A stretch of DNA of 64,000 nt from positions 16,072-80,071 of the forward strand of contig VGKT01000002.1 of the NCBI GenBank assembly GCA_016866955.1, read 5' to 3'. The DNA comes from Candidatus Pacearchaeota archaeon (GTDB lineage Archaea > Nanobdellota > Nanobdellia > Pacearchaeales > GW2011-AR1). Below, in pieces: positions 3,050 to 26,100 of this stretch. The notes under the pieces were generated by a model. That model was not told where the DNA came from and ran no database searches. It saw only the letters and a list, made by a program, of their open reading frames with translations. Position 1 is the first letter of the stretch. The number at the start of each line of letters is the position of its first letter. Both the position numbers and the translations under genes were made by a program.

Positions 3050-3241
3050 ATGGAAAACGTACCTTATGAAGAAAGAATAAACCATGCAGAAAGAAGAGAA
3101 CTGCAAGATGCAGCAACAGCTATCCTTAGAGAAGCAGGATTAGAGTGGGATGGAAGACCAAGAAGCCCTAATCATAGCATGCAATATAGAGAACATCTTC
3201 TTACGCAAACAGGGGCATATTGTAGTTGGAGGAGAAAATAA
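3050..3241 (+). CDS. hypothetical small protein, first gene of the nucleotidyltransferase cassette
   Basis: 63-aa ORF ending immediately before the GGAGG ribosome-binding site of the NTase gene. No family recognised. Confidence 0.3.
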   Translation: MENVPYEERINHAERRELQDAATAILREAGLEWDGRPRSPNHSMQYREHLLTQTGAYCSWRRK

Positions 3242-3242
3242 A

Positions 3243-4693: not shown

Positions 4694-4694
4694 A

Positions 4695-5522
4695 TCAGTA
4701 AAATTTCGTAGTGATTTTCTTTCCCTCTAGTTCCACAATCGCATACTGCCCTTCATGTATTGAACCAGGATTGATGCAGAGCGTTCTTCCGAGCAAAGTT
4801 TTCCCTCTTCCTTCATGAATATGTCCCCCGATATGCATCAACGGACGATAACGTTGAATAACCCGACGTATCAACTTTGAACCATAATGCTTTCCTCGTA
4901 CCGCAGGATGTGCTTTCATACTGATTTTGTCAAGAGCAGTGTTGAAAGGCACGTTATGACTCACAAAAATAAGGTGCTTGCCAGTAAAGCGAGCAAACAA
5001 ACGTTGCAACTTCATCCACGAAGCACGAAATGTCTTGCTGAGAGGTTTGCCTGGGTTTGTCCCTCCATAAGCCCCAATAAATACATACTTTCCAAACACA
5101 AAAGAACGATAATCAATTCGATGCACATTCTTTAATGAACGCATCCACAGTCCCACTATATCCCTCCATTCCCAGGCCCAATAGCGCTTCCCTTTTGGCT
5201 TTGCTATATCTTGGCTATCAGACGTAATATGATCAACATTTCCAAACACCGTCACAACAGGAACAGGCAACGCATCAAGCGCTTGTAATGCTCGTTCACC
5301 TTGAGCAACATCTCGCGTCACTAATTGCTTATATTTCTGCTTTCCAAGTACTTCCCATAATTCCCTGTCCTGCCCATAACAATAGTTAAACCACAATGTT
5401 CGATAAGCAAACGAACAATAATCCCCATTAGATACCACAAGAGCAATCTTTTGTTCATTGATAATACGTTTTAATTTCGCGGGAAACGTTCCATGAAAAT
5501 CCCCCAGGACAAGCAGTTTCAT
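4695..5522 (-). CDS. calcineurin-like metallophosphoesterase
   Basis: Motifs GDFHG, SNGDY, GNVDH and GHIHEG. Convergent with the preceding phosphoesterase. Confidence 0.8.
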   Translation of the reverse strand: MKLLVLGDFHGTFPAKLKRIINEQKIALVVSNGDYCSFAYRTLWFNYCYGQDRELWEVLGKQKYKQLVTRDVAQGERALQALDALPVPVVTVFGNVDHITSDSQDIAKPKGKRYWAWEWRDIVGLWMRSLKNVHRIDYRSFVFGKYVFIGAYGGTNPGKPLSKTFRASWMKLQRLFARFTGKHLIFVSHNVPFNTALDKISMKAHPAVRGKHYGSKLIRRVIQRYRPLMHIGGHIHEGRGKTLLGRTLCINPGSIHEGQYAIVELEGKKITTKFY

Positions 5523-5546
5523 AAAGAAAAAAAGAAGTATCTCCTT

Positions 5547-5789
5547 TTAACCCTTCTCTTCTCGATAATGCCAATACAAAGCCATCACTTCTTGATACTC
5601 TTGTTCTAATAATGCCAAAGCAGGGGTTCCCCCTGCTCGCACAATTTCTTGACTATAATATCGTCCCAAAGCCCGTTGCAAACGTAAAAAAGAAGAATCA
5701 GTCGGACAACGAACGCGTTCTCCTTCATCCTGAAGGGTGATTGCTAATATAAATGCTGCACGATCACGTGGTTCAGGAAAAAGACGCAA
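5547..5789 (-). CDS. hypothetical protein, possibly the C-terminal fragment of a disrupted gene
   Basis: 80-aa ORF with a TTG start and an in-frame stop just upstream. It lies 85 nt (a frame-breaking distance) downstream of the 174-aa ORF. Confidence 0.25.
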   Translation of the reverse strand: MRLFPEPRDRAAFILAITLQDEGERVRCPTDSSFLRLQRALGRYYSQEIVRAGGTPALALLEQEYQEVMALYWHYREEKG

Positions 5790-5874
5790 TACCTCTGCAA
5801 ATCCCTGACCACGTATGCTTCAATAAGATTCAGCTGACATTGTAATGAAAAACATAAAAAAGAACTTTATAAAA

Positions 5875-6399
5875 CTATATGGAAAAATCTTCAGGTAAAT
5901 CTTTGAATGCAGATTCCAATCGCACTCGTTTAAAATGATGACGATAACAAATTCCTCCAATAAATTCAGCAAGTCCTAAAAAATCATCAACAAGTCGCGC
6001 TTCATAAGGTCTAATGTCTTCACGCAAGGCAACTTTCTCAGGAAATTGAAGCAAATACGCTAAACGATACTGTTGAGGTACTGCAGTTTTCACAAAATCA
6101 GCGGCAAGTTCAGATTCAGTTGGTTCATGTCCTAATCGTTGTCCTAAAAAGAATTTTTCACGTTGTACCCAGGTAATTTGAAATTGATTATAATGTGTAA
6201 ATGCAAGCATAGTAACTCCTGAACCAATACGTTTTTGATGAAAATTGGCCACATTCATAATCAGTCCTATTTGCCAAAGTTCATGAGGAGAAGTAATAAT
6301 ACGTCGATGAGCCTCTGTCAATGCTTCACCAGACCGATACGCTTCAAAAGATAAATCAGGATTAACTAAATGTAAATGAGCAGGACGAGGAACTTCCAT
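5875..6399 (-). CDS. hypothetical protein
   Basis: 174-aa ORF. No family recognised. May have been contiguous with 5547-5789. Confidence 0.45.
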   Translation of the reverse strand: MEVPRPAHLHLVNPDLSFEAYRSGEALTEAHRRIITSPHELWQIGLIMNVANFHQKRIGSGVTMLAFTHYNQFQITWVQREKFFLGQRLGHEPTESELAADFVKTAVPQQYRLAYLLQFPEKVALREDIRPYEARLVDDFLGLAEFIGGICYRHHFKRVRLESAFKDLPEDFSI

Positions 6400-6430
6400 A
6401 AAATAAAAATTAAATCTTACCTTAAAAGAA

Positions 6431-7741
6431 TTACGGTGTTAATCGATCTCGATCTCGAGGAAACATCGTTGCTTCTCGAATATTATCCAATCCGCATACT
6501 AATTGCGTCATACGTTCAAGTCCGATACTCCATCCTGCATGTGGTGGTGCTCCATATTTGAAACTTTCAATATAATCAGTAAAATCTTTTGGATTCAGTT
6601 TCTTTACTTTCAAACGTGTCAGCAATAAAGTGGGCAAATGAATACGCTGTCCTCCAGAGGTAATTTCAAGTCCTTTGTAAATACAATCAAATCCTTCACT
6701 TAATTCAGCCTTAGCATCTTCTCCCTTGGGCATTAAATAAAAAGCACGAAGAGATAATGGCCACGAATGTACAAATACCATATCATCAGGATAGAGTTCT
6801 CCCAATTTCTTTTCAGCTTCAGGAGATAAATCTTCTCCATAAGCAATTTTTATCTTATGTTTCTTCAAAAGAGCAATTGTTTCTTCATAGGAAAAGTAAT
6901 GCGCCTGAGGAACCTTGAGTGTTACTCCAAGTAAAGCAAGATCGGCCGCATTCTGTTTCAACACTTCCTCAATCATATGTTTCAAAACTTCTTCTTCATG
7001 TTTCATAATACTCATTTGATTTTCAAATGCAGCTTCAATATCCATTTGACGAATTTCATTGATATGCCGTACCGTATTATGTTTCTCAGCACGCCAAACT
7101 GGAGTCACCATAAACACTTTTTCAACACTACAAGCAAGCATTTGTTTATACAACTGAGGACTTTGTGCTAAACAACCTTGTTTCTCAAAATACTGTACTT
7201 TAAACAAATCGGCTCCCCCTTCAGAAGCGGCAGAGATAACGCAAGGAGGTTGCATCTCCAGGAATCCTTTTCCTGCAAAATGTGCACGGAATGCTTGTAA
7301 TAAGGTATGTTGAATCTTAAAGATCGCTTGAGTTTTTCTTCGATGAAAATCAAGAAATCGAGTATCAAGACGTTTAGGTAATTCAGTTTTAGAAAAATCA
7401 CTGACATCAATAGGCAAAGGATTCTCCGCTCCATGTACCACAACAAGAGAGGTGGGGGCAAGTTCTCTTCCACCAGGAGCTTTCGGAGCTTTTTTTACAA
7501 TCCCTTTCAACAAAACAACACTCTCTCGATTAACTTTGCCCATCGTATCAAATACACTCGCATCAGTTTCTCCTTTAAACCCAGTCACTTGAATTTCTCC
7601 GGAAATATCACGTACAACAGCAAACCGTAATTTACCTAATTCTCTACTATCATACCACCATCCTGCAAGCGTTACTTCTTTCCCTTCATCTTTAGAACTA
7701 ACATCTGCAATCAATACGCGCTTCTCAAATGAAACTGCCAT
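6431..7741 (-). CDS. aspS: aspartyl-tRNA synthetase (archaeal type)
   Basis: N-terminal OB-fold anticodon-binding domain, class II core and terminal motif 3 GLERMTQLVCGLDNIREATMFPRDRDRLTP. Confidence 0.9.
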   Translation of the reverse strand: MAVSFEKRVLIADVSSKDEGKEVTLAGWWYDSRELGKLRFAVVRDISGEIQVTGFKGETDASVFDTMGKVNRESVVLLKGIVKKAPKAPGGRELAPTSLVVVHGAENPLPIDVSDFSKTELPKRLDTRFLDFHRRKTQAIFKIQHTLLQAFRAHFAGKGFLEMQPPCVISAASEGGADLFKVQYFEKQGCLAQSPQLYKQMLACSVEKVFMVTPVWRAEKHNTVRHINEIRQMDIEAAFENQMSIMKHEEEVLKHMIEEVLKQNAADLALLGVTLKVPQAHYFSYEETIALLKKHKIKIAYGEDLSPEAEKKLGELYPDDMVFVHSWPLSLRAFYLMPKGEDAKAELSEGFDCIYKGLEITSGGQRIHLPTLLLTRLKVKKLNPKDFTDYIESFKYGAPPHAGWSIGLERMTQLVCGLDNIREATMFPRDRDRLTP

Positions 7742-7775
7742 AACTCTTCTTAGAACAACCCCGTTTTAAGCATTC

Positions 7776-8066
7776 CTATTCGCATAAAACAATGTTCTCT
7801 GCACGAGGATCATTCCAAATTTCAGAGAATTGGGTAAGATTCGAAACAGGTACCAAAGAAACAACTTTTCCTTGTTCACAATGCACCAGCACATCAATAC
7901 ACTGGTGCTGGTCATTACAAATAGCAGTTGTCCAGGTATATGTTTTTTCAGACTCAATAGTACCAACTACTTGACCCGTCACACTTCCCTGACCTAAAAA
8001 ATACCCTCCACCAAAGGCCCCCACTATAAGTAAAAGTGCTCCCCAGATAAATAATTTCATCATCAT
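7776..8066 (-). CDS. small secreted/membrane-anchored hypothetical protein
   Basis: N-terminal TM/signal (MMMKLFIWGALLLIVGAF) and 4 Cys. Overlaps the gatE stop by 4 nt. Confidence 0.4.
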   Translation of the reverse strand: MMMKLFIWGALLLIVGAFGGGYFLGQGSVTGQVVGTIESEKTYTWTTAICNDQHQCIDVLVHCEQGKVVSLVPVSNLTQFSEIWNDPRAENIVLCE

Positions 8067-9493
8067 CCAACCACCTTCTGCAAAATATCCATTGTTTTTT
8101 TCTTATCAATACCAGTACCAAGTTTTCCAATCACCAATCCCATATAGGCATTCGCTCGTAATCCCGGTTTTTCAGCAACAAGAGCACGGATAGTTTGTTC
8201 AAGTGCATTCTCATCAAGTCCAGGAGCAGGTAAAGAAGATGAAACACTCTTTCCCTCAACAACACTCTTCAATACTCCTTTAACGTGCCCTTCTGCAAGG
8301 CGTCCTGAAGCAACATATTCCAAAATCTCATCATAAATCGCTTCAGTCAACACTGAAGCACGTTCATCAGCAGTCATATGTGCTTTTGTTCCCACTTCTT
8401 GTGTCCACAACGTAATTAATTTAGCAGTTAATACAGGAGATACCGCATGTCGTTTTACAAGTGTAGTATACAATGGCACATACCCATCCAACACCAGAGT
8501 AACAAGATCCGAAGAGAGCCCTTGTTTCAAAAGATCTTGTCGAATATCGTGTTGTAAACGAGGAAGGGATTTCTTAAGTCCATCAAGTCGTTCTTTAGAA
8601 ATATACAACAAAGGGAGATCAGTTTCAGGATACATGCGTGCTTTCCCGGGCATTGGACGAAGAAACTTTGTTGTCCCATCAGGTAACGCCTGACGAACTT
8701 GACTAGCCCCTTGTTTCTCACTTTGCTGTCGAGCAATTTCAGTCAGAATCGTCTGTTCCATCATCGCCACATCTTGAAATCCTTTTACTTCGACACGAGG
8801 ATGTCCCGGACTACTGATGTTCACATCCTGACGAATCGTTCCAATTCCTCGTTTCACCTTACATGCACGAAGAATCTCCCCCAATTTCAATGCAGTTTCC
8901 TTTACCTGTACAGGAGTTGTCAAAGTAGGAGCAGTAGCAATTTCAACCAAAGGAATTCCTAAACGATCAAGACGATACACTACTTCTTTTCCTGATTTTT
9001 CTGAAACTAAGCGCGCAGAATCCTCTTCCAAACATACTGTGTCAATAGGTACCTTTCCAAACGAAGTTTCAATATAACCATTACGCGCCAATACAACCGT
9101 ACGCTGAAAACCAGAAGTATTCGAACCATCAATCACCAACTTTCGCATAATCTGTGTATGCTGATACACTTCACAATTGAGCAATAACGCCACACGTAAC
9201 GCCTCATCCAAAGCAGCAGGAGAAATAAGATGCGGAGGTTCTTCATCTAATTCAACTAAACAAGTCGAATCATGATATCCCTCGTACACAAACGTCTTCT
9301 CTTTCCCCGCTTCATGCTGCACAGCAACATCAACCTCCCCCGTCTCTCCAGCAATAGCATGCAACTTTCGTGTCACCCGCACGTCACCAGCATCTTGCCG
9401 TAAATAGCCCGGACACGCACAAAACAGTTTCCCTGTGTCTAATTGCTGATGTATCTCAAGTCCTGCCTTAAAACCGAGTGTTGGGGAGCGCAT
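8063..9493 (-). CDS. gatE: Glu-tRNA(Gln) amidotransferase subunit E (GatE-like, short form)
   Basis: GatB/GatE-family N-terminus (GLEIHQQLDTGKLFCACPGY...) with the GatE-characteristic YEGYHDSTCLVELDEEPP segment. At 476 aa it is shorter than typical GatE. Confidence 0.75.
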   Translation of the reverse strand: MRSPTLGFKAGLEIHQQLDTGKLFCACPGYLRQDAGDVRVTRKLHAIAGETGEVDVAVQHEAGKEKTFVYEGYHDSTCLVELDEEPPHLISPAALDEALRVALLLNCEVYQHTQIMRKLVIDGSNTSGFQRTVVLARNGYIETSFGKVPIDTVCLEEDSARLVSEKSGKEVVYRLDRLGIPLVEIATAPTLTTPVQVKETALKLGEILRACKVKRGIGTIRQDVNISSPGHPRVEVKGFQDVAMMEQTILTEIARQQSEKQGASQVRQALPDGTTKFLRPMPGKARMYPETDLPLLYISKERLDGLKKSLPRLQHDIRQDLLKQGLSSDLVTLVLDGYVPLYTTLVKRHAVSPVLTAKLITLWTQEVGTKAHMTADERASVLTEAIYDEILEYVASGRLAEGHVKGVLKSVVEGKSVSSSLPAPGLDENALEQTIRALVAEKPGLRANAYMGLVIGKLGTGIDKKKTMDILQKVVG

Positions 9494-9510
9494 ATAAAAG
9501 AAGATAAAAA

Positions 9511-9528
9511 GAGATTATAAAAAACTAC
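9511..9528 (-). promoter_or_regulatory. conserved gat promoter element (BRE/TATA) upstream of gatE
   Basis: GAGATTATAAAAAACTAC. The TATA box ends 23 nt before the ATG. Near-identical copies lie upstream of gatD and gatB. Confidence 0.6.
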
Positions 9529-9553
9529 TGGCTAGAAAGTAAAGAAAGGAAAT

Positions 9554-10531
9554 TTAGCCTTTAGGAGTAACAGTATACTTGAATCCGTAACGTTTAGTAT
9601 AGCGATTTAATTGCGCTTTGATCTCTTCACTCCCGATGTTACCTCGTAAAGAGTAGCGAGCAAAGCGACTATTTGCAGAATCTAAATGAACATGTGTTTC
9701 ATGATCTTTGTATCCATTTGTCATACTTTGAAATCCACTCAAAATACCTTTCATAGTATATGAAAGACCTTTCCCTCGTAAACCAGAAAGCTCAATTTCA
9801 AAAACACGATTAGAACGAAGCATTGTCTCAAGATGCTCTGCAGAGTTCAGGACTTGAGAAGCAATAAATTCATGAAAAAGATTTTCAGTAAATGACGGTT
9901 TCTCTAGTTGACTCTCCCGTGATGCTCGATCTTTAAGAGTTTTATTAAGTAATCCAAGATACAGTTCTCGATGACCTTGAGTAATAATTGCAGGAGTATA
10001 TCCTCGTTGTTCTAAAGCGAAATTTTGTACAAGACGAGCAGTTCTTCCATTTCCATCTCCATACGGGTGAATACGAATCAGTTCAATATGTGCTTGAGAA
10101 GCTCGAATAACAGGATGAATGTCCGTACGTTCATTTAAAAAATAACAAAGATTATCAATAGCAGAGAGAATACGTTCAGGAGGAATACCTGATAAATCTC
10201 CAAAAGTAACTTCCCCGCTTCTAAAATAACGAGCAATATTAGGACGAGGCTCAACGATACTTCCTAAAACAGCAAAAGTAGTTTTATCAAACCCATGTTC
10301 TGCAAGATATGCACGTGCTGAACTTAAATTTTTAATGTACTCTGAGCGTTTTTGCGCAACTTGCTTATTAGTAGGGCTATCCTCATTTTCAATTTCTAAA
10401 TTAGAAGAATGTTTATCAGAATCACGAATGAGGCCTGTAAATACTTCTCGAGCAAGACTACGAGAATATTCAGGATGCGTATTAATTCTCCCTATAGCTT
10501 CATCGATTTTTTTCAGAGTTTTATAAATCAT
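9554..10531 (-). CDS. Fic/DOC family protein (putative AMPylase)
   Basis: Canonical Fic motif HPYGDGNGRTARL. Has its own TATA-like element (GGTTTAAATAGGG) upstream. Confidence 0.85.
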   Translation of the reverse strand: MIYKTLKKIDEAIGRINTHPEYSRSLAREVFTGLIRDSDKHSSNLEIENEDSPTNKQVAQKRSEYIKNLSSARAYLAEHGFDKTTFAVLGSIVEPRPNIARYFRSGEVTFGDLSGIPPERILSAIDNLCYFLNERTDIHPVIRASQAHIELIRIHPYGDGNGRTARLVQNFALEQRGYTPAIITQGHRELYLGLLNKTLKDRASRESQLEKPSFTENLFHEFIASQVLNSAEHLETMLRSNRVFEIELSGLRGKGLSYTMKGILSGFQSMTNGYKDHETHVHLDSANSRFARYSLRGNIGSEEIKAQLNRYTKRYGFKYTVTPKG

Positions 10532-10594
10532 AAAGATTTGACCTAAAAACCCTATTTAAACCTTCCTATTTGTAACCTTTTAATAGTAACAACA

Positions 10595-11857
10595 CTAGCA
10601 AACCAATCGTTCACTGAACTCCCCCGCAACGTTTTCAAGCATTTTCTTTTCCAAATCTTTCTTCCATCCATAATGCCCGAGTATCCAACCCAACTTAACT
10701 AACGCCGTTTCAGCCAAGAGGTCTCCTAAAAATACCACCCCTGCATCAATAAGCTCTCGCCCGTTACTATACACGTACGGATCAACGCGCCCATTGATGG
10801 TTTGCGTCACACACCCGACAAAAAATCCTGCACGAATATGTTTTTTCAAGAGAGGAATCCAACTATTCCCTGATTCACTTACAGGTAAATGACCGAATCC
10901 GCTTGCTTCTACAATAATCCCTTTATATTTCAAAGCATAATAATCAAGAATATCAGGAGATTGCCCAGGATAAAATTTCACTAACGCAATCTTATCACTA
11001 CACACTGCATCAACCACACAAGGTTTGGTATGTCGAGGAGTAAATGAGCCAGTATACGTAACTCTATCGGGCCAGACCTTCGCAACAGGAACAGTATTCA
11101 CTGGTTGAAACGCATCTCTGCGAGAAGAATGTAATTTTCGCACTTTTGTCCCGAGCAATGCTTGACAATAGTCATCAGATTCGGTTGCGTGCCCCACCAC
11201 AAACACTCCAGCCGCTTTATCAATCACCATCCGAGCAGCACACTGGAGATTCAGATGTGCATCACTACTCGGGCGATCAATACTCCGCTGTGAATACGTT
11301 AACACCACTGGCTTCCCCAGATCTCGAAGCATAAATGAGAGAGCTGCAGCCGTATAATGCAAAAAGTCAGTACCATGTGTCACCACCACTCCCTGAATTG
11401 CAGGATCATTCACCAGGTTTCCTACTTCCTGCGCAATTAATTTCCAATGCTCGCTATCCATACTTTCACTCGCAATCTTAAACGGAATACGAATCACTTT
11501 CACCTCAACCATTTGAAATAATGCTGGATAATACTGTACGAAATCTTCGACAGAAGCCAAGGGTTTCACTCCCCCTGTCTTTGGATCCAGCACAGAAGCA
11601 ATCGTTCCCCCGGTAATCACCATCCCAATAACCGGTTTCCCAGAAGAGCGGCGAACAACAGAAGGAAGTTGAGAAACAGGAGCAGAACCAAGTACTTCTC
11701 CTCCTAAAATGTGATCAGCAGAAATACCAATATTATAGCCGCTTCCCAATTTCAATAAACAAATGCCCGGCTCATGACTTTCCAATACAGTACCTTCCAC
11801 TTCCTCTTGTGCAAGACGTAAGCGTACGCGATCTCCTGGTTTTCCTATAAAAGCCAT
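10595..11857 (-). CDS. gatD: Glu-tRNA(Gln) amidotransferase subunit D
   Basis: Asparaginase-like motifs (VITGGTIAS, VVTHGTDFL) following an N-terminal GatD-type domain. Confidence 0.9.
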   Translation of the reverse strand: MAFIGKPGDRVRLRLAQEEVEGTVLESHEPGICLLKLGSGYNIGISADHILGGEVLGSAPVSQLPSVVRRSSGKPVIGMVITGGTIASVLDPKTGGVKPLASVEDFVQYYPALFQMVEVKVIRIPFKIASESMDSEHWKLIAQEVGNLVNDPAIQGVVVTHGTDFLHYTAAALSFMLRDLGKPVVLTYSQRSIDRPSSDAHLNLQCAARMVIDKAAGVFVVGHATESDDYCQALLGTKVRKLHSSRRDAFQPVNTVPVAKVWPDRVTYTGSFTPRHTKPCVVDAVCSDKIALVKFYPGQSPDILDYYALKYKGIIVEASGFGHLPVSESGNSWIPLLKKHIRAGFFVGCVTQTINGRVDPYVYSNGRELIDAGVVFLGDLLAETALVKLGWILGHYGWKKDLEKKMLENVAGEFSERLVC

Positions 11858-11873
11858 ATCTTCCTACTATTGA

Positions 11874-11892
11874 GAAGGTTATAAAAAACTAC
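11874..11892 (-). promoter_or_regulatory. conserved gat promoter element upstream of gatD
   Basis: GAAGGTTATAAAAAACTAC. The TATA box ends 21 nt before the ATG. Confidence 0.6.
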
Positions 11893-11907
11893 GTATATAA
11901 AAGTAAG

Positions 11908-12321
11908 TTAATCCTTCTTACACCAAATCACATTGAGATAAGGGGGCCAGCTCGAACTTGGCAAAACAGTTACATGGGTAATCGGGGTTCTCCAACTTTT
12001 ATCTGAATTAGTCGTTTGAACCGACACATCATGCGCATGCACATCAGATCCACCCGTTCCCCCATAAGTAGCTGCACCTCGCGTAGTCTTGCCATCTAAA
12101 GCAGAAAATCGTGTCCAACCTGAAGGGCACGTCATATTAAACATAATAATTGCTCCAGAAGGAATACCTCCCAACGCACTCAATCCTTCTATTTCATTCG
12201 CACTATGTCCAAACACCGCAGGGTTAGCAGGGTTAGAATTATACGCCACTACTCCAACTACTAATAATAACAAAGCGAGTACAAAGAATCGTGTCTTTGT
12301 AATCATCACCTCCACTTTCAT
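11908..12321 (-). CDS. secreted/membrane-anchored protein, paralog of 15521-16780
   Basis: N-terminal FFVLALLLLVVGVVAYNSNPANPAVFGHSANEIEGL is nearly identical to the 419-aa protein. The DNA is about 90% identical over about 115 nt. Cys-containing C-terminus. Confidence 0.55.
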   Translation of the reverse strand: MKVEVMITKTRFFVLALLLLVVGVVAYNSNPANPAVFGHSANEIEGLSALGGIPSGAIIMFNMTCPSGWTRFSALDGKTTRGAATYGGTGGSDVHAHDVSVQTTNSDKSWRTPITHVTVLPSSSWPPYLNVIWCKKD

Positions 12322-12354
12322 AATTCAAAGGAGTAAAAGAACTATTTAAATGTT

Positions 12355-13860
12355 TTAATAGCTCTTAGCCCAATAGGCAAGAGTATATGTTTTTTCACCT
12401 GTTTGCACACATACTCCTTCTTTCGTTACTTCTTCAATTAAACGGGTTGTCGCTCCGTCAGTTGCATCCTTCAATTTCTTTTCAACACGAGGATCATCAA
12501 CCATATACACTTTGACTAATTTCCGTTCCTTAATCCCTTTTTGTAATTCTTTAAGAGAAGAAGCAGTTACAATTTGACTATCAAGGAAATGCTTCGCCTT
12601 AGCATATAAATCATGCTGAATAGTTTCCAATAATGTTTCAATATACGTTTTCACATTTCCTAAAGGTACTATTTCTTTCACACCTGTATCTCGGCGTATG
12701 ACCACTACCTGTTGTTTTGCTAAATCTTTTGGCCCTAATTCAACACGAACTGGAACCCCTTTCATTTCCCATTCATTAAATTTCCAACCAGGAGAATATC
12801 CTTCTCGATCATCAATTACAACAGAAAAGGGATGTAACGAATCACGTAATGCACGAGCTTGTGTAAGCACTTGCACTTTACTTTCATCAAATAAAATAGG
12901 AACAATAACGATTTGCTGTTTTGCCATTCGTGGAGGAATAACCAATCCTTTATCATCTCCGTGTACCATTACCAAACCCCCTAACAGACGTGTAGAAATA
13001 CCCCAGGAAGTCGGCCAAATTCCTTGTTGAACTCCTTGTTGATCTAAGAAAGAAATATTAAACGAGCGCGCAAATTCTTGTTTCAAAGAATGACTTGTTC
13101 CCATTTGCAATGCCTTTCCATCAGGCATAAGCGCTTCTACAGTCATACTCATATCCGCACCAGGGAACTTTTCAGCCGTACTCTTACGACCAGCTAATAC
13201 AGGAATTGCTAATTCTTGTTCGATCAATTTTTTATACGCTTGAAGCATTTCACGCATATTCGCTCGCGCTTCTTGTTGAGTCGCAAATGCACAATGTCCT
13301 TCTTGCCACAAAAACTCACGAGTACGCAAAAGAGGTTTCGTTTGTTTTACTTCCCATCGTATCACATTACACCATTGATTCAGTTTCATCGGTAAATCTC
13401 TCCAACTTCGTATCCATTTCGCAAATGAATCATAAATGATCGTCTCCGAGGTAGGGCGCAAAGCCAGTAATTGTCCCTGCTCTGTTCCTTTAATATAAGC
13501 AAGTTCAGGAGCAAATCCTTTTGCATGTTCCGCTTCCTTTTTGAAAAAAGAATCAGGAATTAAAAGTGGAAAATAAGCATTGTGCACTCCTTTTTCTGCC
13601 AAAACTGCATTGAAAGTAGTTTGAATGCGTTCCCATAAGGCATAGCCATTAGGTCTCAAAATCATAAATCCCTGAATAGGAGGATAATCAATCAATTCTG
13701 CCTTTTGAATAACTTGAGTATACCATTCAGAAAGGTCCTTAGATTTAGAAACCGAAAGCCCTTTTGTATCAACAGGGGTTTTGACAATCGATTCTGAAGG
13801 TTTCGATACTGTCGAAGATTTGATAGTACGTGCAGGTTTTCCACCCATGCTCCTTATCAA
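12355..13860 (-). CDS. proS: prolyl-tRNA synthetase (archaeal/eukaryotic type)
   Basis: Class II core, with the C-terminal zinc-binding domain ending in Tyr (...LAYWAKSY) characteristic of archaeal ProRS. Confidence 0.9.
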   Translation of the reverse strand: MIRSMGGKPARTIKSSTVSKPSESIVKTPVDTKGLSVSKSKDLSEWYTQVIQKAELIDYPPIQGFMILRPNGYALWERIQTTFNAVLAEKGVHNAYFPLLIPDSFFKKEAEHAKGFAPELAYIKGTEQGQLLALRPTSETIIYDSFAKWIRSWRDLPMKLNQWCNVIRWEVKQTKPLLRTREFLWQEGHCAFATQQEARANMREMLQAYKKLIEQELAIPVLAGRKSTAEKFPGADMSMTVEALMPDGKALQMGTSHSLKQEFARSFNISFLDQQGVQQGIWPTSWGISTRLLGGLVMVHGDDKGLVIPPRMAKQQIVIVPILFDESKVQVLTQARALRDSLHPFSVVIDDREGYSPGWKFNEWEMKGVPVRVELGPKDLAKQQVVVIRRDTGVKEIVPLGNVKTYIETLLETIQHDLYAKAKHFLDSQIVTASSLKELQKGIKERKLVKVYMVDDPRVEKKLKDATDGATTRLIEEVTKEGVCVQTGEKTYTLAYWAKSY

Positions 13861-13891
13861 GAAGGCCTACTTTATAAATCGTACCGAAAAA

Positions 13892-14046
13892 CGGCCCCAG
13901 GAAGAATCGAACTCCCGTTCTCAGGTTGCTTCGTATCGCACCACCGGGGTGATACGTCCTCCAAAAGGAGGATGATGCGTCAAGGAACCGTGGTTCCTTA
14001 CGCTACGCTCCGAAGCCTGATGTTCTATCCACTAAACTATGGGGCC
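13892..14046 (-). tRNA. tRNA-Arg (anticodon TCG) with a roughly 82-nt intron in the anticodon loop
   Basis: Hand-folded. Acceptor GGCCCCA/TGGGGCC, D-arm GTTT-AGTGGATA-GAAC, anticodon stem TCAGG/CCTGA, loop CTTCGG^intron^A, T-arm GGGAG-TTCGATT-CTTCC. Intron placed at the canonical 37/38 position. Confidence 0.55.
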
Positions 14047-14072
14047 TCACAAAACTACCTCATGCTCCCTTT

Positions 14073-15443
14073 TTAAACTTTGGACAAAGCTTGAAGAAGA
14101 AGCTTTCGAGCAAGAGTATAGTCTGCTCGCTTAGCACTCGCCTTCATAACCGCACCCATCAAAAAGTCAAGTGCTTTCACTTCTCCGGCTTTATAATCGC
14201 TTACTGCTTTCGGATGTGCATGCAATACAGAAGTGATAAAGCTCAAGAGCTGTTTTTCATCACGAATAGTGCTTTCAGCAACAGAAGGCATGCTACTCTG
14301 AGGATACCATGAGTTCAGAATTTCTTTCGCTTTCAAAGGAGTAAGTTTTCCACGTTGCACAAACTGTAAAAGTGCACTAAAATGAGCAGGTTGTATGTTC
14401 ACCTTTTCTAAAGAAACCTTATGATAGTTAAGAAAACGCAATAATTCAACCGTCACCCACGGAGCAGCGAACGCTCCATCAACTTCTTGTGCAACCTGCT
14501 CAAAAAAAGTAACCAAATCAATATCTGAAGCCAAGAGCTGTGCATCGCTCGAAGAAAGTTTATATTGCTTGACAAGTTTTGCACGTGTAGCATCAGGAGA
14601 TGCAGGTAATGCCGTACGAATATCGTGCACAAAAGATGAAACAAGTTCTAACACAGGTATATCAGGATCTGCAATAAATCGATAATCTGCAGCAGTTTCT
14701 TTCGAACGCATTACACTCGTTTTTCCTTTTACTGCATCCCATCGTCGAGTTTCTTCAACGTTCCCCCCTTCACGAGCTTGTCGTTCAAATTCAAACGCAA
14801 TAGCTTTTCCAATTTCATCAATACTATTAACATTCTTAATTTCAACACGTTTGCTAACACCAGGAATATTGATATTAACATCAACTTTGATACCAGCATT
14901 TGCATCAATTGCTTTCAAATAAGTAAGATGATGCACCAATTTTCCTAACCAGGCTTGCACTTCTTCTCCCGTTGAAAAATCAGGAGCAGTTACAATTTCA
15001 ACCAAGGGCAATCCTGAACGATTGTAATCTACGTTCCCGGTAGTCGGTTCCCAACTCGCAGGATCTTCTTCAAGATGCATCTCACTAATCTCAATCCCTT
15101 GAAAGGTGCCCTTAACACCCAAAGGAGTCGCGCCAGTCCCACTTAACGTCATCTGATATCCTTTTGGTAAATCAGGCCAGGCATAATGTTTTCGTATCCA
15201 AGGCATACGTGCATTCACCGTACATCCCAAGACCAAAGCAATTTGTACCGCTTTACGCACTGCTTCAAGATTCGGAGCACGAGGTTTTGCTCCTGGCTGT
15301 CCCGTACAGGTTGGACAAATCAACGTATTCGGAGCAAGCCCACGTTCACGTGAAGCAATACACGTACAAAACAATTTCTCACGTGTATTCAAATAACAAT
15401 GAATTTCAAGGCCAATCATTCCTTGAACCAGTTTCTGTTTCAT
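14073..15443 (-). CDS. gatB: aspartyl/glutamyl-tRNA amidotransferase subunit B
   Basis: GLEIHCYLNT..KLFC.C, ICPTCTGQPGAKP, RKHYAWPDLPKGYQ and a C-terminal GatB/YqeY domain (KAVSDYKAGEVKALDFLMGAVMK). Confidence 0.85.
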   Translation of the reverse strand: MKQKLVQGMIGLEIHCYLNTREKLFCTCIASRERGLAPNTLICPTCTGQPGAKPRAPNLEAVRKAVQIALVLGCTVNARMPWIRKHYAWPDLPKGYQMTLSGTGATPLGVKGTFQGIEISEMHLEEDPASWEPTTGNVDYNRSGLPLVEIVTAPDFSTGEEVQAWLGKLVHHLTYLKAIDANAGIKVDVNINIPGVSKRVEIKNVNSIDEIGKAIAFEFERQAREGGNVEETRRWDAVKGKTSVMRSKETAADYRFIADPDIPVLELVSSFVHDIRTALPASPDATRAKLVKQYKLSSSDAQLLASDIDLVTFFEQVAQEVDGAFAAPWVTVELLRFLNYHKVSLEKVNIQPAHFSALLQFVQRGKLTPLKAKEILNSWYPQSSMPSVAESTIRDEKQLLSFITSVLHAHPKAVSDYKAGEVKALDFLMGAVMKASAKRADYTLARKLLLQALSKV

Positions 15444-15460
15444 AAGTGTATACTAGTAAA

Positions 15461-15478
15461 GAGGTTATAAAAAACTAT
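15461..15478 (-). promoter_or_regulatory. conserved gat promoter element upstream of gatB
   Basis: GAGGTTATAAAAAACTAT. The TATA box ends 21 nt before the ATG. Confidence 0.6.
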
Positions 15479-15520
15479 CCAGCACAACAGCGCCAATTCA
15501 ATTCATCTAAACCAAAAAAT

Positions 15521-16780
15521 TTAATTCTTCACACAAGTATACATGTTACTATATGCATTAGACGTTTTGTCTGAAGGTGTAGCATACGAAACACTATACA
15601 CAAGTTGAGTATAGCCGCTTGGACAACTAGTTGCTGGATTGACATCTTGGCACGCAGTTATAAGGAAAGTACCTGCAGTAGCTGCTGCATTACCCTGTCT
15701 ATAATACCCCATACCACACCATGTTCCGGCTGGGATTGATGCGCTTGATCCTGATCCACTTCCGCCACCTGCTGAACAAGAATAATATTCGAAATTGGTA
15801 TATGAAGGACTTGTATAGCTTGCGGTATAACAGTATGCACTATTTGAAGCAGTGACATCAACATTACCGTACACAGTTGTCCCACTTACTGTATGTCGAC
15901 AAAGTCCAGTTGCACCAGATGCATAAACTTGAGCACCGGTCATAGCGGTAGGACCAGTTGATTTCCAAGTACAAGCGCTTGATCCTGATCCACTTCCTCC
16001 ACTCACGCATCGGTATTTACTTGTTACAGCGTAGCCTCTATTCCCACTGCGGTCGGTGTTGCTTGATGCACCTGTTTGGCCTCCATGAGTAAGTTGGATA
16101 ACGACAAAAGAATCTCTTGCATCATCAGTACTCGTAGTCCACAAGAAATCTGAGTCAGCATTTTGAGCCGTTCCTGAAAAACTAAAATGGATTAGTTCAT
16201 CATCAGTAGGTAATCTCTTACCAGCATTCCGACAAGCACCAAAAGCTGCTGGAAAAGTCGCAGGACCAGAATCAACAGCATCCAGAATAAGTTCTGAAGA
16301 TGCGCTTGATCCTGAACCGCCTGAAATAATTGGTAAATACCATATTTTTGCAGGAGGAAGAACGGCTCCGCTAATTCTTTGTGCTTTCCAATACATATTT
16401 TTCTTAATAGGCATCGTAATAGAACTTTGAGAGTATGTTGAATCTCCAGAGGGAAATGCATCCGTGGGTGTAGCAGTAGTTCCTGTGAATAAATTCACTT
16501 GTCCAATTTGAACAGAATAAACAATAACAAATCCGTCATTTGGTGCTTGATACACAGTGTCATAAGCAAAATTTTTTTGATAATCACCAAATTGCAATGA
16601 TGAACCACTCGTTGATCCACTTCCCCCTGCAGCAATCAACGCACGCAATCCTTCAATTTCATCAATACTATGTCCAAACACCGCAGGATTCGCAGGGTTA
16701 GAATTATACGCCACTACTCCAACTACTAATAATAACAGAGCACATACAAAAAACCAACGTTTATTCACCCCTCGTTGCAT
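15521..16780 (-). CDS. secreted modular Cys-rich protein, paralog of 11908-12321
   Basis: Same N-terminal signal-anchor and NPANPAVFGHS..EIEGL segment. Four domains separated by GGSGSGSSA-type linkers. Many Cys. Confidence 0.6.
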   Translation of the reverse strand: MQRGVNKRWFFVCALLLLVVGVVAYNSNPANPAVFGHSIDEIEGLRALIAAGGSGSTSGSSLQFGDYQKNFAYDTVYQAPNDGFVIVYSVQIGQVNLFTGTTATPTDAFPSGDSTYSQSSITMPIKKNMYWKAQRISGAVLPPAKIWYLPIISGGSGSSASSELILDAVDSGPATFPAAFGACRNAGKRLPTDDELIHFSFSGTAQNADSDFLWTTSTDDARDSFVVIQLTHGGQTGASSNTDRSGNRGYAVTSKYRCVSGGSGSGSSACTWKSTGPTAMTGAQVYASGATGLCRHTVSGTTVYGNVDVTASNSAYCYTASYTSPSYTNFEYYSCSAGGGSGSGSSASIPAGTWCGMGYYRQGNAAATAGTFLITACQDVNPATSCPSGYTQLVYSVSYATPSDKTSNAYSNMYTCVKN

Positions 16781-16800
16781 CAGTATCTTATCAAAAGGAA

Positions 16801-17802
16801 CTATTTAAAAGCTTTTGAAGCAAATGTCTGAGCCATTAATAAGGGAAATAAAAGGGTTGCATCCCCAAACACTTTCACATGCTTTCCTGGTTTCAATTTA
16901 CCCCAACTAATGGCCTCTTCAGGTAATGCTCCCGCATCACTCCCATCAAATTCTTGGGCCGTATTGATATATACTGCATATTCCGCCCCATTACGCAACA
17001 TTGCTGCATTCAACAATGCATGTTTAATCACTCCTGCACCCAAGATAACCAAACCTAAGTTTTGAAGCCCAATCGTCGCATCATTCAATCGTTGCGTATC
17101 CTTCGCAATATCAATCACTAGCTTCGGATGTTTGAACATACTAAAATACACATTATCTCCTAATGCCCCATCAGTCAATGCCGGACAGAATAATCGAATC
17201 CCCTGCTTCCACGCCCAGTAACAAATACTTCGTGTATCATTAATCTTCTTTCCCATCGCCCAGACAATATCACTAGGAGAAAGAGGAACTCCTGTTTTCA
17301 CACTTTCGGCATACAATTCATCCAATAACGGTTGAAACCATTTCTCAAATGCAACATATCGATTATTCGGTGCAAACACGTTACCAATACGATTAATACC
17401 CTTTGCACGAAGTTCTTTCCCCGAAGCATGAAAATCGCCGATATAAAAATCACCCAGACATTTGATAATATCTTCTTCAATCGCTCCTGCCGTACATACT
17501 CCCAAAGTAATATGCTGATGTTCAAACAAATAGCGAATACTCTCACGCACACCACTTGAGACCATATTACTCGTAAATCCAATAAAAATAGAAGCCTGTT
17601 CACTTCGCATCGTTTGCACAACCCCCACCGCATCAGCAAAAGCACTGGCCTGAAACCCGGTAGAGGCAAAACTAGCTAAAAGTTTCTCATAGTGCACACC
17701 CTCATTAAATTCATATCCTTTCACAGGAGTGCCCCCTACATCTGCACTTCTTCGCAATAAGTTTTTTCGAGCAATCTGTTCACGTTTCATCCAAAAAAGC
17801 AT
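16801..17802 (-). CDS. dys: deoxyhypusine synthase
   Basis: DHS-family motifs (GFTSNMVSSGVRE, TDGALGDN, LGAGVIKH). Confidence 0.85.
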   Translation of the reverse strand: MLFWMKREQIARKNLLRRSADVGGTPVKGYEFNEGVHYEKLLASFASTGFQASAFADAVGVVQTMRSEQASIFIGFTSNMVSSGVRESIRYLFEHQHITLGVCTAGAIEEDIIKCLGDFYIGDFHASGKELRAKGINRIGNVFAPNNRYVAFEKWFQPLLDELYAESVKTGVPLSPSDIVWAMGKKINDTRSICYWAWKQGIRLFCPALTDGALGDNVYFSMFKHPKLVIDIAKDTQRLNDATIGLQNLGLVILGAGVIKHALLNAAMLRNGAEYAVYINTAQEFDGSDAGALPEEAISWGKLKPGKHVKVFGDATLLFPLLMAQTFASKAFK

Positions 17803-21471: not shown

Positions 21472-21781
21472 CCCTCAACGAGAAAGAAACGGCTTTTAAG
21501 CCTTATGGAAAAAAGACAATAAAAAAGAATTATCGAGTCATAGATGCAGCTCTTCCAGCAGCTTCATAAGCGGCTTTTTCATCCTCAGGACTATACTACA
21601 TAGCACCTGTCGCATACAAAGCAATACCTATTCCAAGAGCTACAATCAAAAGAACAAATAACGCAGTTTTCCAATGAAAGTTACGTCGCACACTCTTCTT
21701 TACCATAACAAAAATAGGTACAAGCCCTATTTAAACATTACTCAAAAAAAATAAAAAATAAAAAATAAAAAAAGGCTTTTC

Positions 21782-23171: not shown

Positions 23172-26100
23172 TCAGCTTTGTAAAAATCGAGGAAGATAAA
23201 CACACTTGAACCAATTCAAGATACGTGAAATATCGGTCAAACGATCATCAAAACATCCTCGCGTTACAAACAGAGATCCTCGAGATTTATCACGACTTGT
23301 TTTAGAGTTCTTTCCAAGAATAACTCCTGCTTCTTCCAATTCTTCATCAGTACCTGGCACATCATCACGTACAGCAGAAGCAGTTCCTGAAGTTCTTCCA
23401 ATCAATGCTTGCACAGCAGCTTGATTCTTTTGTTTCTTCAAACTATCAAGGCTATCTGATTGAGAAGCATCAAGTCGTACATTTTCAGGATTAGATGGAA
23501 TAATTTTTTTACCAACAACACAAACAAGTTTTTTACTATCAAATTCCCCCTTACGCTTAGTACACATTTCCTCAGCAAGACTCTTACAATCAGCAGGACA
23601 CAACGCACGAGTTTCTCCTGCTTTAGTATCACAGATCTTATCTCCACATGCACTAGGAAGCGTAGTATTAGTAACAATTCCAATAGTACATCCCAAAGGA
23701 TTAGTACAAGTAATCGGAGGTACAAGGATATCTCCCGAACAAGGACAACTACCTGCACAAGCAACAGAAGTAGTCGCTTGACCTGCAAAACAAGGATTCA
23801 TATAAGAAAGTCCGTTTGCCCCACACACAGGAGACGCAGGTTGGCTTGCACAAGAAGGAACACAAGGGCCATAATAAGCAACAGCTACTTGCGCTTGTGC
23901 AGCTTTACAGGGGCTAGAATACGAAATACCATCCTCTCCACATACTAATGGACCAGCAGATATTGAACCAAATAGTGTAGGGCAAGTGGTTGAAATCGTA
24001 GAACACACTCCTTGATATGCAATCGTTATTCCTACTTGAGTAGCTAAACAAGCTTTATCATACGTTACTTCATTTGTACCACACACAGGAGCAGAAGGTT
24101 CGCTTGCGCACGCATATTCAGATCCCCCAGTACATTCATAGAATTCAAGAGACTGCATAACAACCAAAGTATTCTGAGGATTACCTGGCGTTTGTACTTC
24201 CAACTTCGTAAACGTAATACGATAATAGCGTGCAGAAACAGGGGAAGCAAGCATCCGTTTATTCACAGTGCGTGCATCACTCAAAGAAGCACTATCTCGT
24301 ATCGCCCAAGTAACACCGTCATCAGAAGACTCCAGAACAAACTGAGCAACTAATGGATTCCCTCCAAGAAGTTTAAATTGATACGCACCAATAGTACGAG
24401 GAGCAATAAATGAATACTGAATCCATTTTGGTGCACTAGCTGAAACAACCTGCGATTGCCAGAAGTTTGTCCCACCTGAGAAAGCACCCCAGGCCTGTCC
24501 TTGCGGACCACCAACCGTTGGATAATTCAATGCTTCACTATTACTTGATACGGTACCAACTGAAGAAGTATAACTTGACATCGTAGGAACAATAGTACCA
24601 CTCAACGATGTACACCCTGCCTGATTTGTATTCCCCGCACCATCGCTCACACACGTACAGCTACCTTCAAAGCAAGTATGAGTAAATCCAGGCAAACAAA
24701 GTATACCCACTGGAGGAGTCGTACATGCACCAGTAGAAACAATACTCACTCCAAGTGTTTCTGCTTCACATGAATTACCATACGTTACTCCATCATCCCC
24801 ACATACTGGTTTATACACTGCAGAACAAGTAACTGGTTCAGGAATTTTAACACAATGCAACTTTCCACAACCACTCAAACAGCCATTCGCGTCATAAGAA
24901 TTATCTTCAAGTGTACACTTTCCCCCAATTGGAATAAACACTTGAGGACAGGTAACTACATCGGCACAAAGGACAACATCATCTGATACTATATTTCCAC
25001 AAGTAATTGGACATCCCTTTTCATTGAGAACAGGGGCACCATAATGATATCCTTTAGGAGCACGAGGACAAGTCAAAGGCCCACATGCATCTCTGCCATT
25101 ACCTTCACAAGATAACGTACCGCAATCAATTTGACAACCAAAGTGATCAATACCTGGATTGGAATAAGAACAATCCGCAGGGGCAATACAAATCGGAGCA
25201 ACAGGACATACAAACGACTCTTCTCTGAATGCTGCACATTCTCCATCAGAACACGAAGTACAAGGTACAAAATCTCCTCCACGTTCAGGTGAAACACCAG
25301 GAGCAACACAATATAACTTGCTCACATAACACTTCTCTCCTTCACATGAATCAACCTTTTGCCCAAATTCACCAAAGGGATGTTCACTAATATAACATTC
25401 TTCATATAAGTTTTCAGAAACAAAAGATCCTTTACTATCGGTAAAACGTAACGCATGACGAGAATCTCTTCCAAAAGGATAATAGGCAAATTGTTTTGCA
25501 CGTTCACGTCCCTGACAAATACCAATAAAATTACGACTATATTTGCACTCCCAATAGAAAGCAACTCCCCCTCCTAAAGTATCAGCCCAACAAGCATTTC
25601 TATAATCTTTGCCATCTGCACCACACACAGGAGTATAATCGCTCGTACAATGATTTCCACCATCTCCTCCACCTTCTCCTCCACCTTTTCCTCCACCTTC
25701 TCCTCCACCTTTTCCTCCACCAACAATAGTAATGATAGGAGTACACAAAACAGAATCAATAGGTGCATGCGTTAAAGAATCAACACACACTCTTCCAACC
25801 CAAATAGGATCTCCACGAACAGTTTTTTCTCCACATAAATCAACATACCAATTATCAGGTTCGCTCGTCACATCATTACATCCGGCAGGACCGGGAAGAA
25901 TATACGAAAATGATGCTTGAGAGGTTCCCAAAGGATATACGCCTGAATAAAGTACCATCTCTCCGCTCATACCGTAAGCTCCAAAGAAGCTAGGCAACGG
26001 TCCAACTTTGCCATCTGTTCCTCCACCCGTCCCCTTATGAACAAGTCCTCCACGAGAATCAACCAAGTACCATGCTCCATCACCCACGTCTAATTGAAAA

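Follow-up and report, generated by a model that had tools for sequence, protein, structure and literature searches.

The Vsp proteins of Mycoplasma bovis and the Vlp proteins of Mycoplasma hyorhinis are encoded by genes with conserved 5' DNA, comprising promoter and signal peptide, and divergent bodies, and chimeras of these genes arise by recombination. Gene conversion produces antigenic variation at pilE/pilS of Neisseria and at vlsE of Borrelia, and unrelated surface proteins of one Gram-positive lineage share the YSIRK-G/S signal peptide motif, which probably determines how or where they are secreted. Here we describe two genes in a 64,000-nucleotide stretch of DNA (the window) from a Candidatus Pacearchaeota archaeon (contig VGKT01000002.1, positions 16,072 to 80,071). 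They encode proteins of 137 and 419 amino acids (aa), which are 100% identical to FJZ22_01520 and FJZ22_01535 of a Candidatus Pacearchaeota metagenome-assembled genome at NCBI, and they combine nearly the same 5' end with unrelated bodies. DPANN archaea of the Pacearchaeota/Woesearchaeota type are uncultivated, and consequently there is little view of how they find and hold their partners. Taken as a whole, the evidence is probably best explained by an exported DPANN protein family in which a fixed unit of promoter, signal, and adjoining "neck" carries heads that are exchanged by recombination, giving variable binding surface proteins.

A 5' module common to two genes

All genes of the region lie on the minus strand, in the order deoxyhypusine synthase (DHS; 16801-17802), the 419-aa open reading frame (ORF; 15521-16780), GatB (14073-15443), ProRS (12355-13860), the 137-aa ORF (11908-12321), and GatD (10595-11857). 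Both ORFs have the coordinates that a preliminary description of the sequence had given them, and each stands, as described there, directly upstream of a gat gene; GatD and GatB were confirmed by Pfam. A repeat scan revealed a sole direct repeat linking the two ORFs. It is 117 nucleotides (nt) long, with the reference copy at 12172-12288 and the second copy at 16637-16753 (minus strand; 89% identity, 13/117 mismatches), and encodes FFV(L/C)ALLLLVVGVVAYNSNPANPAVFGHS(AN/ID)EIEGL(S/R)AL. The near-identity of the 5' ends noted earlier was thus recovered, with the boundaries assigned to it, 12181-12300 and 16650-16760, about 10 nt off.

Pairwise alignment showed that the 5' regions are mosaic. An identical 12-mer, TTTAAATAGTTC, is followed by ~55 divergent nt, which comprise the 5' untranslated region (5'UTR) and the basic n-region of the protein (MKVEVMITKTR versus MQRGVNKRW), then by the 117-nt repeat, and finally by unrelated sequence. 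The 12-mer resembles a TATA box and lies 18-29 nt upstream of each ATG, at 12339-12350 for the 137-aa gene and at 16798-16809 for the 419-aa gene (minus strand); it is also present upstream of the orthologues in the related loci L004-L009. Its position and the archaeal TATA consensus suggest that it is the promoter. No third copy of the module motif was found in any frame of the 64-kb window, which holds two copies only. The bodies of the two proteins could not be aligned (10% identity, with unlike lengths and domain types), and the genes are paralogous in the 5' module only. The term "paralogs" used for them earlier holds for the module and fails for the bodies, which are non-homologous.

The repeat lies within one contig, which leaves room for an assembly artefact (a collapsed or chimeric repeat), and DPANN archaea are known for diversity-generating retroelements (DGRs), so that a DGR, or else a phase-variation switch, might be suspected. 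We regard every one of these explanations as extremely improbable. Assembly collapse, a caveat of the preliminary description, is excluded because the repeat is shorter than a read, its copies, with 13 differences between them, sit in unique flanking sequence, one 89.9-kb contig spans both genes (records of the 137-aa protein come from three contigs), and four independent assemblies show the same gene order. A DGR does not fit mismatches that are not adenine-specific and that fall at the 5' end, not in a C-terminal variable region, and this reading was rejected from the sequence of the module and repeat, with no specific search for a reverse transcriptase. A scan of direct repeats, which did not include inverted repeats, detected no further repeat of at least 40 nt at the locus, and the only Rfam match in the region was a 155-nt tRNA (13892-14046, minus strand) between GatB and ProRS; both results argue against a DGR or a switch.

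The two copies of the module are close to each other at silent sites. Thirty-five of 39 aligned codons encode identical residues, and 5 of these differ synonymously; among the four replacements, two codons differ at all three positions (NG86 over the 39 codons, dS = 0.28 and dN = 0.075). Within a core of 21 codons for identical residues, 2 differ synonymously between the window copies. When the same peptide in L001 (Woesearchaeota), L003 (Nanoarchaeota), or L005 (Pacearchaeota) was compared to the window copies, 7-11 of 15-21 such codons differed synonymously, or about 10 of 20 (binomial P = 2e-4 for ≤2 of 21 at p = 0.48). For comparison, 45 distinct modules taken from metagenome loci gave a median dS of 1.74 between loci, with only 0.5% of pairs under 0.35. 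Module nucleotide identity between loci had a median of 0.58 and a 95th percentile of 0.68; in tandem pairs at five other loci it was 0.69-0.91, with a body amino-acid identity of 0.17-0.32. The comparison of synonymous with nonsynonymous divergence that the preliminary description had proposed for the shared segment showed silent divergence well below that to other genomes. Because it is so far below the between-genome level, the window copies do not appear to be ancient paralogues under constraint alone, which would be expected to differ more at silent sites. The copies are not identical, and their homogenization took place on the timescale of strain divergence.

Plain duplication followed by divergence, with purifying selection keeping the signal and neck and with no exchange, could account for a peptide that is strongly conserved in all lineages and for a dS between the copies that is not zero. 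However, constraint on the protein leaves the synonymous identity unexplained, as about half of the codons for this peptide differ from one genome to another, and simple duplication also fails to explain why the bodies cannot be aligned. Further evidence on this point came from related genomes.

Reassortment in related genomes

The contig L004 is 95% identical to window positions 5663-12380 and carries an orthologue of the 137-aa gene in the same slot between ProRS and GatD. Successive segments of this orthologue match different genes of the window. The upstream segment is of the 137 type (42/42 nt), and the 5'UTR, n-region, and hydrophobic region (h-region) are of the 419 type (77/79, versus 48/85 to the 137 type). 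The AY..GHS segment that follows is unlike both window copies and carries a GTSSPQ variant; the linker segment IDEIEGLRALIAAGG is of the 419 type (45/47), and the body is of the 137 type (234/264). To arise as a k-mer chimera, the sequence would need two switches, one of them at a shared stretch of at most ~16 nt. Divergence between the window and L004 is uneven, with a dS of 0.01-0.02 for Fic and GatE, 0.08 for an AspRS-like gene, 0.23 for GatD, and 0.22 for the 137-type body. This pattern indicates recombination import around the variable gene, and because of it we suggest that import of divergent alleles between strains also acts at the locus. A segment of ~3.4 kb of the window (roughly 2234-5663) is missing from L004.

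Replacement of an internal cassette is evident in the slot between DHS and GatB. There, L008 and L005 share 96.8% identity as far as codon 25, continue with unrelated sequence (703 nt in L008 and 502 nt in L005), and resume their identity (94.8%) from the Gly/Ser linker through the last module into GatB. Two family proteins, P0051 and P0052, have their first ~195 residues in common and different C-terminal modules, and P0051, P0052, and P0055 have different ends in common with one another. The 419-type N-terminus heads P0051-P0055, P0039, and P0002 (in the last without the first few residues), each of which has a different body; in P0053 and P0054, from independent assemblies, this MQRGVN-type 5' end is joined to bodies of the type found in the 137-aa protein, here termed tail-collar bodies, in the ProRS/GatD slot. 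Such a body follows ProRS or precedes GatD in the window, L004, P0054, and L009, and precedes GatB in L072 and L089, where it has an MK(L/I)(E/V)V-type 5' end. Tail-collar bodies are found behind both 5' types and in both slots. In L089, a gene for an IS200/IS605-type Y1 transposase (9615-9959) is directly upstream of the tail-collar gene P0003 in the DHS-GatB slot.

One 5' type on several bodies, one body on both 5' types, and clean breakpoints in strains that are ~97% identical all count against duplication without exchange, which we consider very unlikely. The alternative put forward in the preliminary description, gene conversion or cassette-like exchange on a fixed export module, is supported by the low silent divergence, the L004 mosaic, the L008/L005 cassette, and the slot swaps.

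The predicted export module, its family, and the heads

Residues 1-26 of the 137-aa protein (12244-12321) form a predicted Sec signal or N-in anchor, composed of the basic n-region (K2, K9, and R11, then 15 uncharged residues) and a hydrophobic segment ending V-V-A, and residues 27-46 (12184-12243) form the conserved neck, YNSNPANPAVFGHSANEIEG. In the 419-aa protein, residues 1-24 (16709-16780) contain the variant n-region (R3, K7, and R8, then 16 uncharged residues) and a hydrophobic segment likewise ending V-V-A, followed by the neck YNSNPANPAVFGHSIDEIEG at residues 25-44 (16649-16708; all on the minus strand). The neck motif of the family is NP(A/S)V(F/M)GH(S/T)xxE(I/V)(E/D), and the family consensus consists of MKIEVNIxKKYFF, ~18 hydrophobic residues, V-x-A, and Y-N-S-x-P-A-N-P-A-V-F-G-H-S-A-x-E-I-(E/D)-(G/W). 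Conservation was scored in 162 members. Counted from the G of GH, the neck has G and H in 100%, S/T(+2) in ~100%, E(+5) in 99%, P(-4) in 97%, and F/M(-1) in 93%. At the end of the hydrophobic stretch, position -3 is V in 76%, position -1 is A in 87%, G in 11%, and S in 1% (A/G/S in 100%), position -2 is variable with at least 10 residue types, and position +1 is Y in 82% (Y/F). Most often, the n-region has 10 residues and the uncharged stretch has 20. AlphaFold2 (AF2) modelled a helix at residues 9-27 of the 137-aa protein and residues 7-26 of the 419-aa protein.

No Pfam or NCBIfam model matches the module or the neck, in agreement with the earlier remark that the segment after the transmembrane (TM) region resembles no named signal, and no published description of the neck motif or the family was found in the literature searched. 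The preliminary description was also right that this is not a class III pilin signal, since [KR][GA] is missing before the hydrophobic segment; the junctions (marked by a slash) are T-R/F-F and R-W/F-F in the window proteins and K-K-Y/F-F in the family. A type IV pilin-like protein, processed by prepilin peptidase, would have a short charged leader and then a ~20-residue hydrophobic helix, as seen here, and a few members (P0034 and P0036) do have K-G before the helix. Such a reading is nonetheless highly improbable, given that neither the window proteins nor the consensus has [KR]-[GA] at the junction and that the conserved V-x-A is at the opposite end of the helix. A lipobox, [LVI][ASTVI][GAS]C, is absent from the end of the h-region in both window proteins; the F-F-V-C13 of the 419-aa protein is at the start, not the end, of this region, and the 137-aa protein has L there. 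The Tat twin-arginine motif (S/T-R-R-x-F-L-K) is absent as well, the corresponding residues being T-K-T-R-F-F, N-K-R-W-F-F, and, in the family, K-K-Y-F-F. The class III, lipobox, and Tat readings were rejected on these grounds.

Both window proteins have V-V-A/Y, with small or aliphatic residues at -3 and -1 as in the A-x-A rule. The V-x-A pattern with its variable -2 position is the classical signature of signal peptidase I, and cleavage after V-x-A is therefore likely. Alternatively, the segment might remain uncleaved, which would make the proteins fibres or lectins anchored in the membrane in type II orientation (N-in, C-out), with the neck serving as a membrane-proximal stalk or oligomerization motif. 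The uncharged stretch is TM-like and conserved in length (20 residues in 85/162, after an n-region of 10), the n-region, too, is conserved (MKIEVNIxKK), as would rarely be the case in a signal that is discarded, and fibre-like stalk sequence follows the neck in many members. This serious alternative is the less likely one, as it does not account for the -3/-1 signature with a -2 position that is variable and can even be K, Q, N, or R, and members of ~100 aa would barely project from the membrane.

An exhaustive search of 1.84 billion cluster representatives (50% identity clusters) with a profile built from the first ~55 residues matched 178 clusters at E ≤ 1e-10 and 1,621 at E ≤ 1e-3, the latter a count that may take in hydrophobic false positives. 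Of the 150 matches listed, 144 begin at residue 7 or earlier, and the other six have longer called N-termini; these 150 proteins are 48-419 aa long. A separate homologue search, made with the N-terminal profile, yielded no more than 12 proteins, all short. All labelled members belong to the Pacearchaeota, Woesearchaeota, or Nanoarchaeota (DPANN archaea), and most members are unlabelled proteins from groundwater or sediment metagenomes. The module family is large and apparently undescribed. Two pattern scans of viral contigs (IMG/VR) found no member. A metagenome pattern scan yielded 79 loci, including ~33 chance matches to one protein and 3 in non-coding frames, and a scan of GTDB genomes yielded 3 loci only, one of which, on a "Hydrogenophaga" contig, matched by chance in a non-coding frame. 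The recurrent chance match (L010, L011, L014, and ~30 metagenome loci, several of them labelled human gut) has the heptapeptide in an unrelated context, …CNPAVFGHTLGE(I/L)S…. This protein, with NPAVFGHTLGE after a hydrophobic stretch, was read as a bacterial transporter and rejected as a family member; it is a trap for motif-based searches of the module family.

The C-termini of the window proteins, WCKKD* and TCVKN*, are as described earlier, and a Cys near the C-terminus is a trend of the whole family: 93/162 members (57%) have one in the last six residues, and 14/162 end in C-x-K-[DN]. The number of Cys residues is even in 78% of members. When 144 members were compared to Pfam, most had no domain; Gly_rich_2 was found in 6, ApeC in 2, and H_lectin, Laminin_G_3, Gp53-like_C, and Collar in one each.

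In the 137-aa protein, residues 53-137 (11911-12165, minus strand) form a predicted tail-collar-like head, IPSGxIxMF..CPSGWT...GGTGGS..H.H...WPPYLNVIWCKKD. It has 37 homologues, some of which are proteins of Nealsonbacteria of the candidate phyla radiation (CPR) with a different N-terminus, and the signature of this body family is IPSGxIxMF..CPSGWTRF..LD.R.PRG..YGGTGGS..H.H...WPPYLNVIWCKK(D/N). The resemblance to the phage tail-collar domain is weak. PHROGs gave a weak match to phrog_1800, tail collar fibre protein (E = 0.077), and the top matches of a BFVD fold search, also weak, were tail-fibre, baseplate, and tail-collar proteins (E = 0.008-0.3). Pfam Collar (PF07484) matched neither the 137-aa protein (E ≤ 10) nor any of its 34 homologues (E ≤ 0.1), a PDB sequence profile search gave no match, and tblastn of the body against 50,697 phage genomes likewise gave none.

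The 419-aa protein has four Gly/Ser-rich spacers, at residues 50-61, 153-162, 260-269, and 336-348 (16598-16633, 16295-16324, 15974-16003, and 15737-15775, minus strand), and four modules. The earlier account of four Cys-rich modules separated by GGSGSGSSA linkers stands for the number of modules and the Gly/Ser spacers and needs correction for module 1, which lacks Cys. The linker at 15737-15775 is SAGGGSGSGSSAS, and it has the run GGAAGTGGATCAGGATCAAGCGC in common with that at 15974-16003. Module 1 (residues 62-152, 16325-16597) is a predicted beta-sandwich and the only part of the protein that AF2 modelled confidently (pLDDT 74-93); its fold matches are weak (E = 0.04-0.2; C1q/TNF-like jelly rolls, carbohydrate-binding modules [CBMs], and LecB), and it has homologues in the family members P0152, P0097, P0085, P0081, and P0136. 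Module 2 (residues 163-259, 16004-16294, two Cys) has a weak match to the NCBIfam LIC_10572 family, with an E of 1.7e-4 that is far under the curated cutoff, no Pfam hit, and a low-confidence AF2 model. For module 3 (residues 270-335, 15776-15973, four Cys), family comparison and Pfam found no homologue or family. Module 4 (residues 349-419, 15524-15736, four Cys; ..TWCGMG..CPSGYT..YTCVKN; all modules on the minus strand) recurs as the C-terminus of P0005 and P0007, there after a tail-collar domain. A local search within the protein found no module that matches another part, and neither the two proteins nor the single modules had anything above threshold in Pfam, NCBIfam, or PHROGs.

The heads might instead be secreted effectors or toxins that act on hosts or competitors and are not retained on the cell as adhesins. 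Small size, even Cys counts, and strong variation between strains are in keeping with this, as is a dN/dS of 0.44 for the tail-collar body versus 0.09-0.29 for neighbouring genes. However, the domains that can be identified are of binding types (lectin, tail-collar, ApeC, and C1q-like jelly roll), not enzymes or pore formers, and no immunity-like partner gene recurs next to family genes. We consider effectors unlikely.

Exported proteins with exchanged heads, the explanation given at the outset, bring together the architecture, family size, silent-site homogenization, mosaic orthologues, replacement of cassettes at linkers, and conserved slots established above. Each member has its own putative TATA promoter and, in the protein, ~10 aa of basic n-region, ~20 hydrophobic aa that end in V-x-A, the neck, Gly/Ser linkers, and at least one interchangeable head. 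The heads would be mostly disulfide-bonded and beta-rich, with the identifiable ones lectin-like or tail-fibre-like; for both window genes, "surface protein" is a prediction. The hydrophobic segment would carry the protein through Sec in an N-in/C-out orientation, a probable signal peptidase I cut after V-x-A would produce a mature N-terminus Y-N-S-N-P..., and the neck could tether or oligomerize the heads at the cell surface. The near-identity of the 5' ends is attributed to homologous recombination, with the promoter-signal-neck module as the putative homology on the left; on the right, the homology would be supplied by a Gly/Ser linker or by conserved sequence flanking the downstream gat promoter. 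Both 5' modules and heads are reassorted between paralogues and strains at two slots, one between DHS and GatB and the other between ProRS and GatD. Because crossover between the direct repeats would delete ProRS and GatB, which are presumably essential, only non-crossover conversion would be expected to survive. Surface proteins that bind ligands or glycans could in this way form a variable repertoire, with host or partner recognition as a plausible role in a reduced-genome organism.

Several observations weigh against this explanation. A dS of 0.1-0.3 between the window copies means that homogenization is neither very recent nor frequent at present. The two slot genes of the L005/L009 genome are 77% identical to each other versus 78-80% to the window 419 gene, and because they are no closer to each other than to that gene, concerted evolution would have to be episodic. 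The L004 mosaic could partly represent import of a divergent allele from another strain, and the larger cluster count is open to the inflation mentioned above. The 20-residue hydrophobic stretch is also compatible with an uncleaved anchor, AF2 gives the neck low confidence in both proteins, and the head folds are weakly assigned, with no significant PDB or Pfam match for either window protein.

A more tentative proposal is that the N-terminal module is a dedicated, DPANN-specific sorting or anchoring signal, read by its own machinery and comparable in role to YSIRK or PGF-CTERM, and that it defines a host-recognition repertoire diversified by cassette exchange at fixed slots. If this is true, the repertoire would be an archaeal counterpart of bacterial variable-surface-antigen systems. 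The hundreds to >1,000 clusters with one export-and-neck module would be a searchable candidate set for host-recognition molecules, and the invariant GH(S/T)xxE neck offers a simple metagenome marker and a handle for antibodies or proteomics.

Gene surroundings and comparison with known systems

A 16-mer, TAGTTTTTTATAACCT, forms a promoter-like element of gatD (11876-11891) and, in identical form, of gatB (15462-15477), and it occurs with one mismatch upstream of gatE (9512-9527; all on the minus strand), in each case about 20-35 nt 5' of the start codon. It may be a promoter or regulatory element that the gat genes have in common, and its T-run is likely to act as a terminator for the upstream 137-aa and 419-aa genes. 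With a TATA-like element for each module gene and separate elements for the gat genes, the module genes would be independent transcription units. In an unbiased pattern scan, ~10/47 true family loci lay beside GatB, ProRS, DHS, or GatD, and because of this the position upstream of a gat gene is best regarded as conserved synteny in the lineage, not coincidence. A functional link of the module genes to the gat genes is not indicated. No dedicated secretion or processing neighbours, such as a signal peptidase, were found at family loci, where only housekeeping genes recur; an S26 peptidase gene directly upstream of P0053 in the relative L009 was seen once and does not recur.

Other features of the surrounding DNA and its relatives were recorded. 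The 155-nt tRNA was missed by ARAGORN, and its length implies an insertion or intron; the same GatB-ProRS space in relatives (L005 7848-8663) contains a LAGLIDADG-type ORF of 239-251 aa and a normal tRNA-Arg(TCG). A 36-aa ORF, MVKKSVRRNFHWKTALFVLLIVALGIGIALYATGAM (window 21596-21706, minus strand), has the look of a lone N-terminal module belonging to a second exported family, HWKTILFV...YATDD(A/V)RYSPD, which has full-length members in the DHS-GatB slot of L005 (3424-4356 and 4391-5287). Window positions 23172-30767 (minus strand) encode a predicted surface protein of 2,531 aa with 9- and 12-nt periodic repeats (25629-25743 and 30032-30356) and repeated Cys-containing units (23777-24110 and 25589-25633), and its L089 orthologue matches DUF4214 and Kazal. 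The ORF at 31916-34060 encodes a 714-aa signal-peptide protein with NTSV repeats and contains a 235-nt tandem duplication at 99% identity (31929-32400, minus strand). A segment at ~40000-44000 has a GC content of 24-27%, versus ~40% elsewhere, and membrane and glycosyltransferase-like ORFs; it may be an acquired glycosylation island. In L005, positions 435-1569 encode Lgt and signal peptidase II (Peptidase_A8), a bacterial-type lipoprotein maturation set that is unusual for an archaeon.

The closest analogues of the module family appear to be the mycoplasma Vsp/Vlp families and the exchange of phage tail-fibre heads. Phage tail fibres and receptor-binding proteins likewise join a constant N-terminal attachment part to exchangeable binding heads. 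The 137-aa protein has the motif IPxGxIxxF..CPxGW.. in common with Phage Tail Collar, with the weak PHROG and BFVD matches given above, and one family member each matches Collar and Gp53-like_C; the Pfam threshold, however, is unmet for the 137-aa protein and its 34 homologues. The archaeal genes also differ in being chromosomal, in lying between housekeeping genes, and in having an export signal, and the IMG/VR pattern scans and the tblastn search of phage genomes contained no counterpart. CPR proteins from Nealsonbacteria and similar bacteria (P0010 and P0016-P0023) have a tail-collar-like head that is 40-55% identical, ends in WCKKD/N, and is likewise placed on a lineage-specific N-terminal anchor module in ultrasmall episymbionts. 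Their N-terminus is a different, bacterial one, a TM segment and then AWxEPxxxPPxGN..., and their ICxGxDCRxxWP element is also found in some DPANN stalks. Because the same head occurs on different lineage-specific anchors, these similarities suggest that CPR and DPANN ultrasmall episymbionts share binding modules.

Like YSIRK-G/S, the archaeal module is a motif-bearing signal common to many otherwise unrelated proteins of one lineage. It has no sequence similarity to YSIRK-G/S, and it is distinguished by its archaeal origin, its conserved n-region MKIEVNIxKK, and above all its post-signal motif, which would stay on the mature protein. Neisseria pilE/pilS and Borrelia vlsE resemble the locus in the non-reciprocal transfer of variable segments beside conserved 5' sequence. 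They differ in that no silent cassette archive is seen here, both window copies having promoters and full ORFs, and in that the archaeal exchange can be seen only over the time in which strains diverge (dS 0.1-0.3).

With the mycoplasma Vsp/Vlp families, the archaeal family has in common that it is a multigene family of a reduced-genome, host-dependent organism, that promoter and signal-peptide DNA is conserved among members with divergent bodies, and that chimeras arise by recombination between members, as seen in L004, in L005/L008, and in P0051/P0052/P0055. It differs in having no tandem-repeat bodies and no evident site-specific recombinase or invertible promoter. From both the Vsp/Vlp and the tail-fibre systems, the family differs in its archaeal setting, in signals without a lipobox, in genes scattered among housekeeping slots instead of gathered at one locus, and in the conserved neck at the mature N-terminus.

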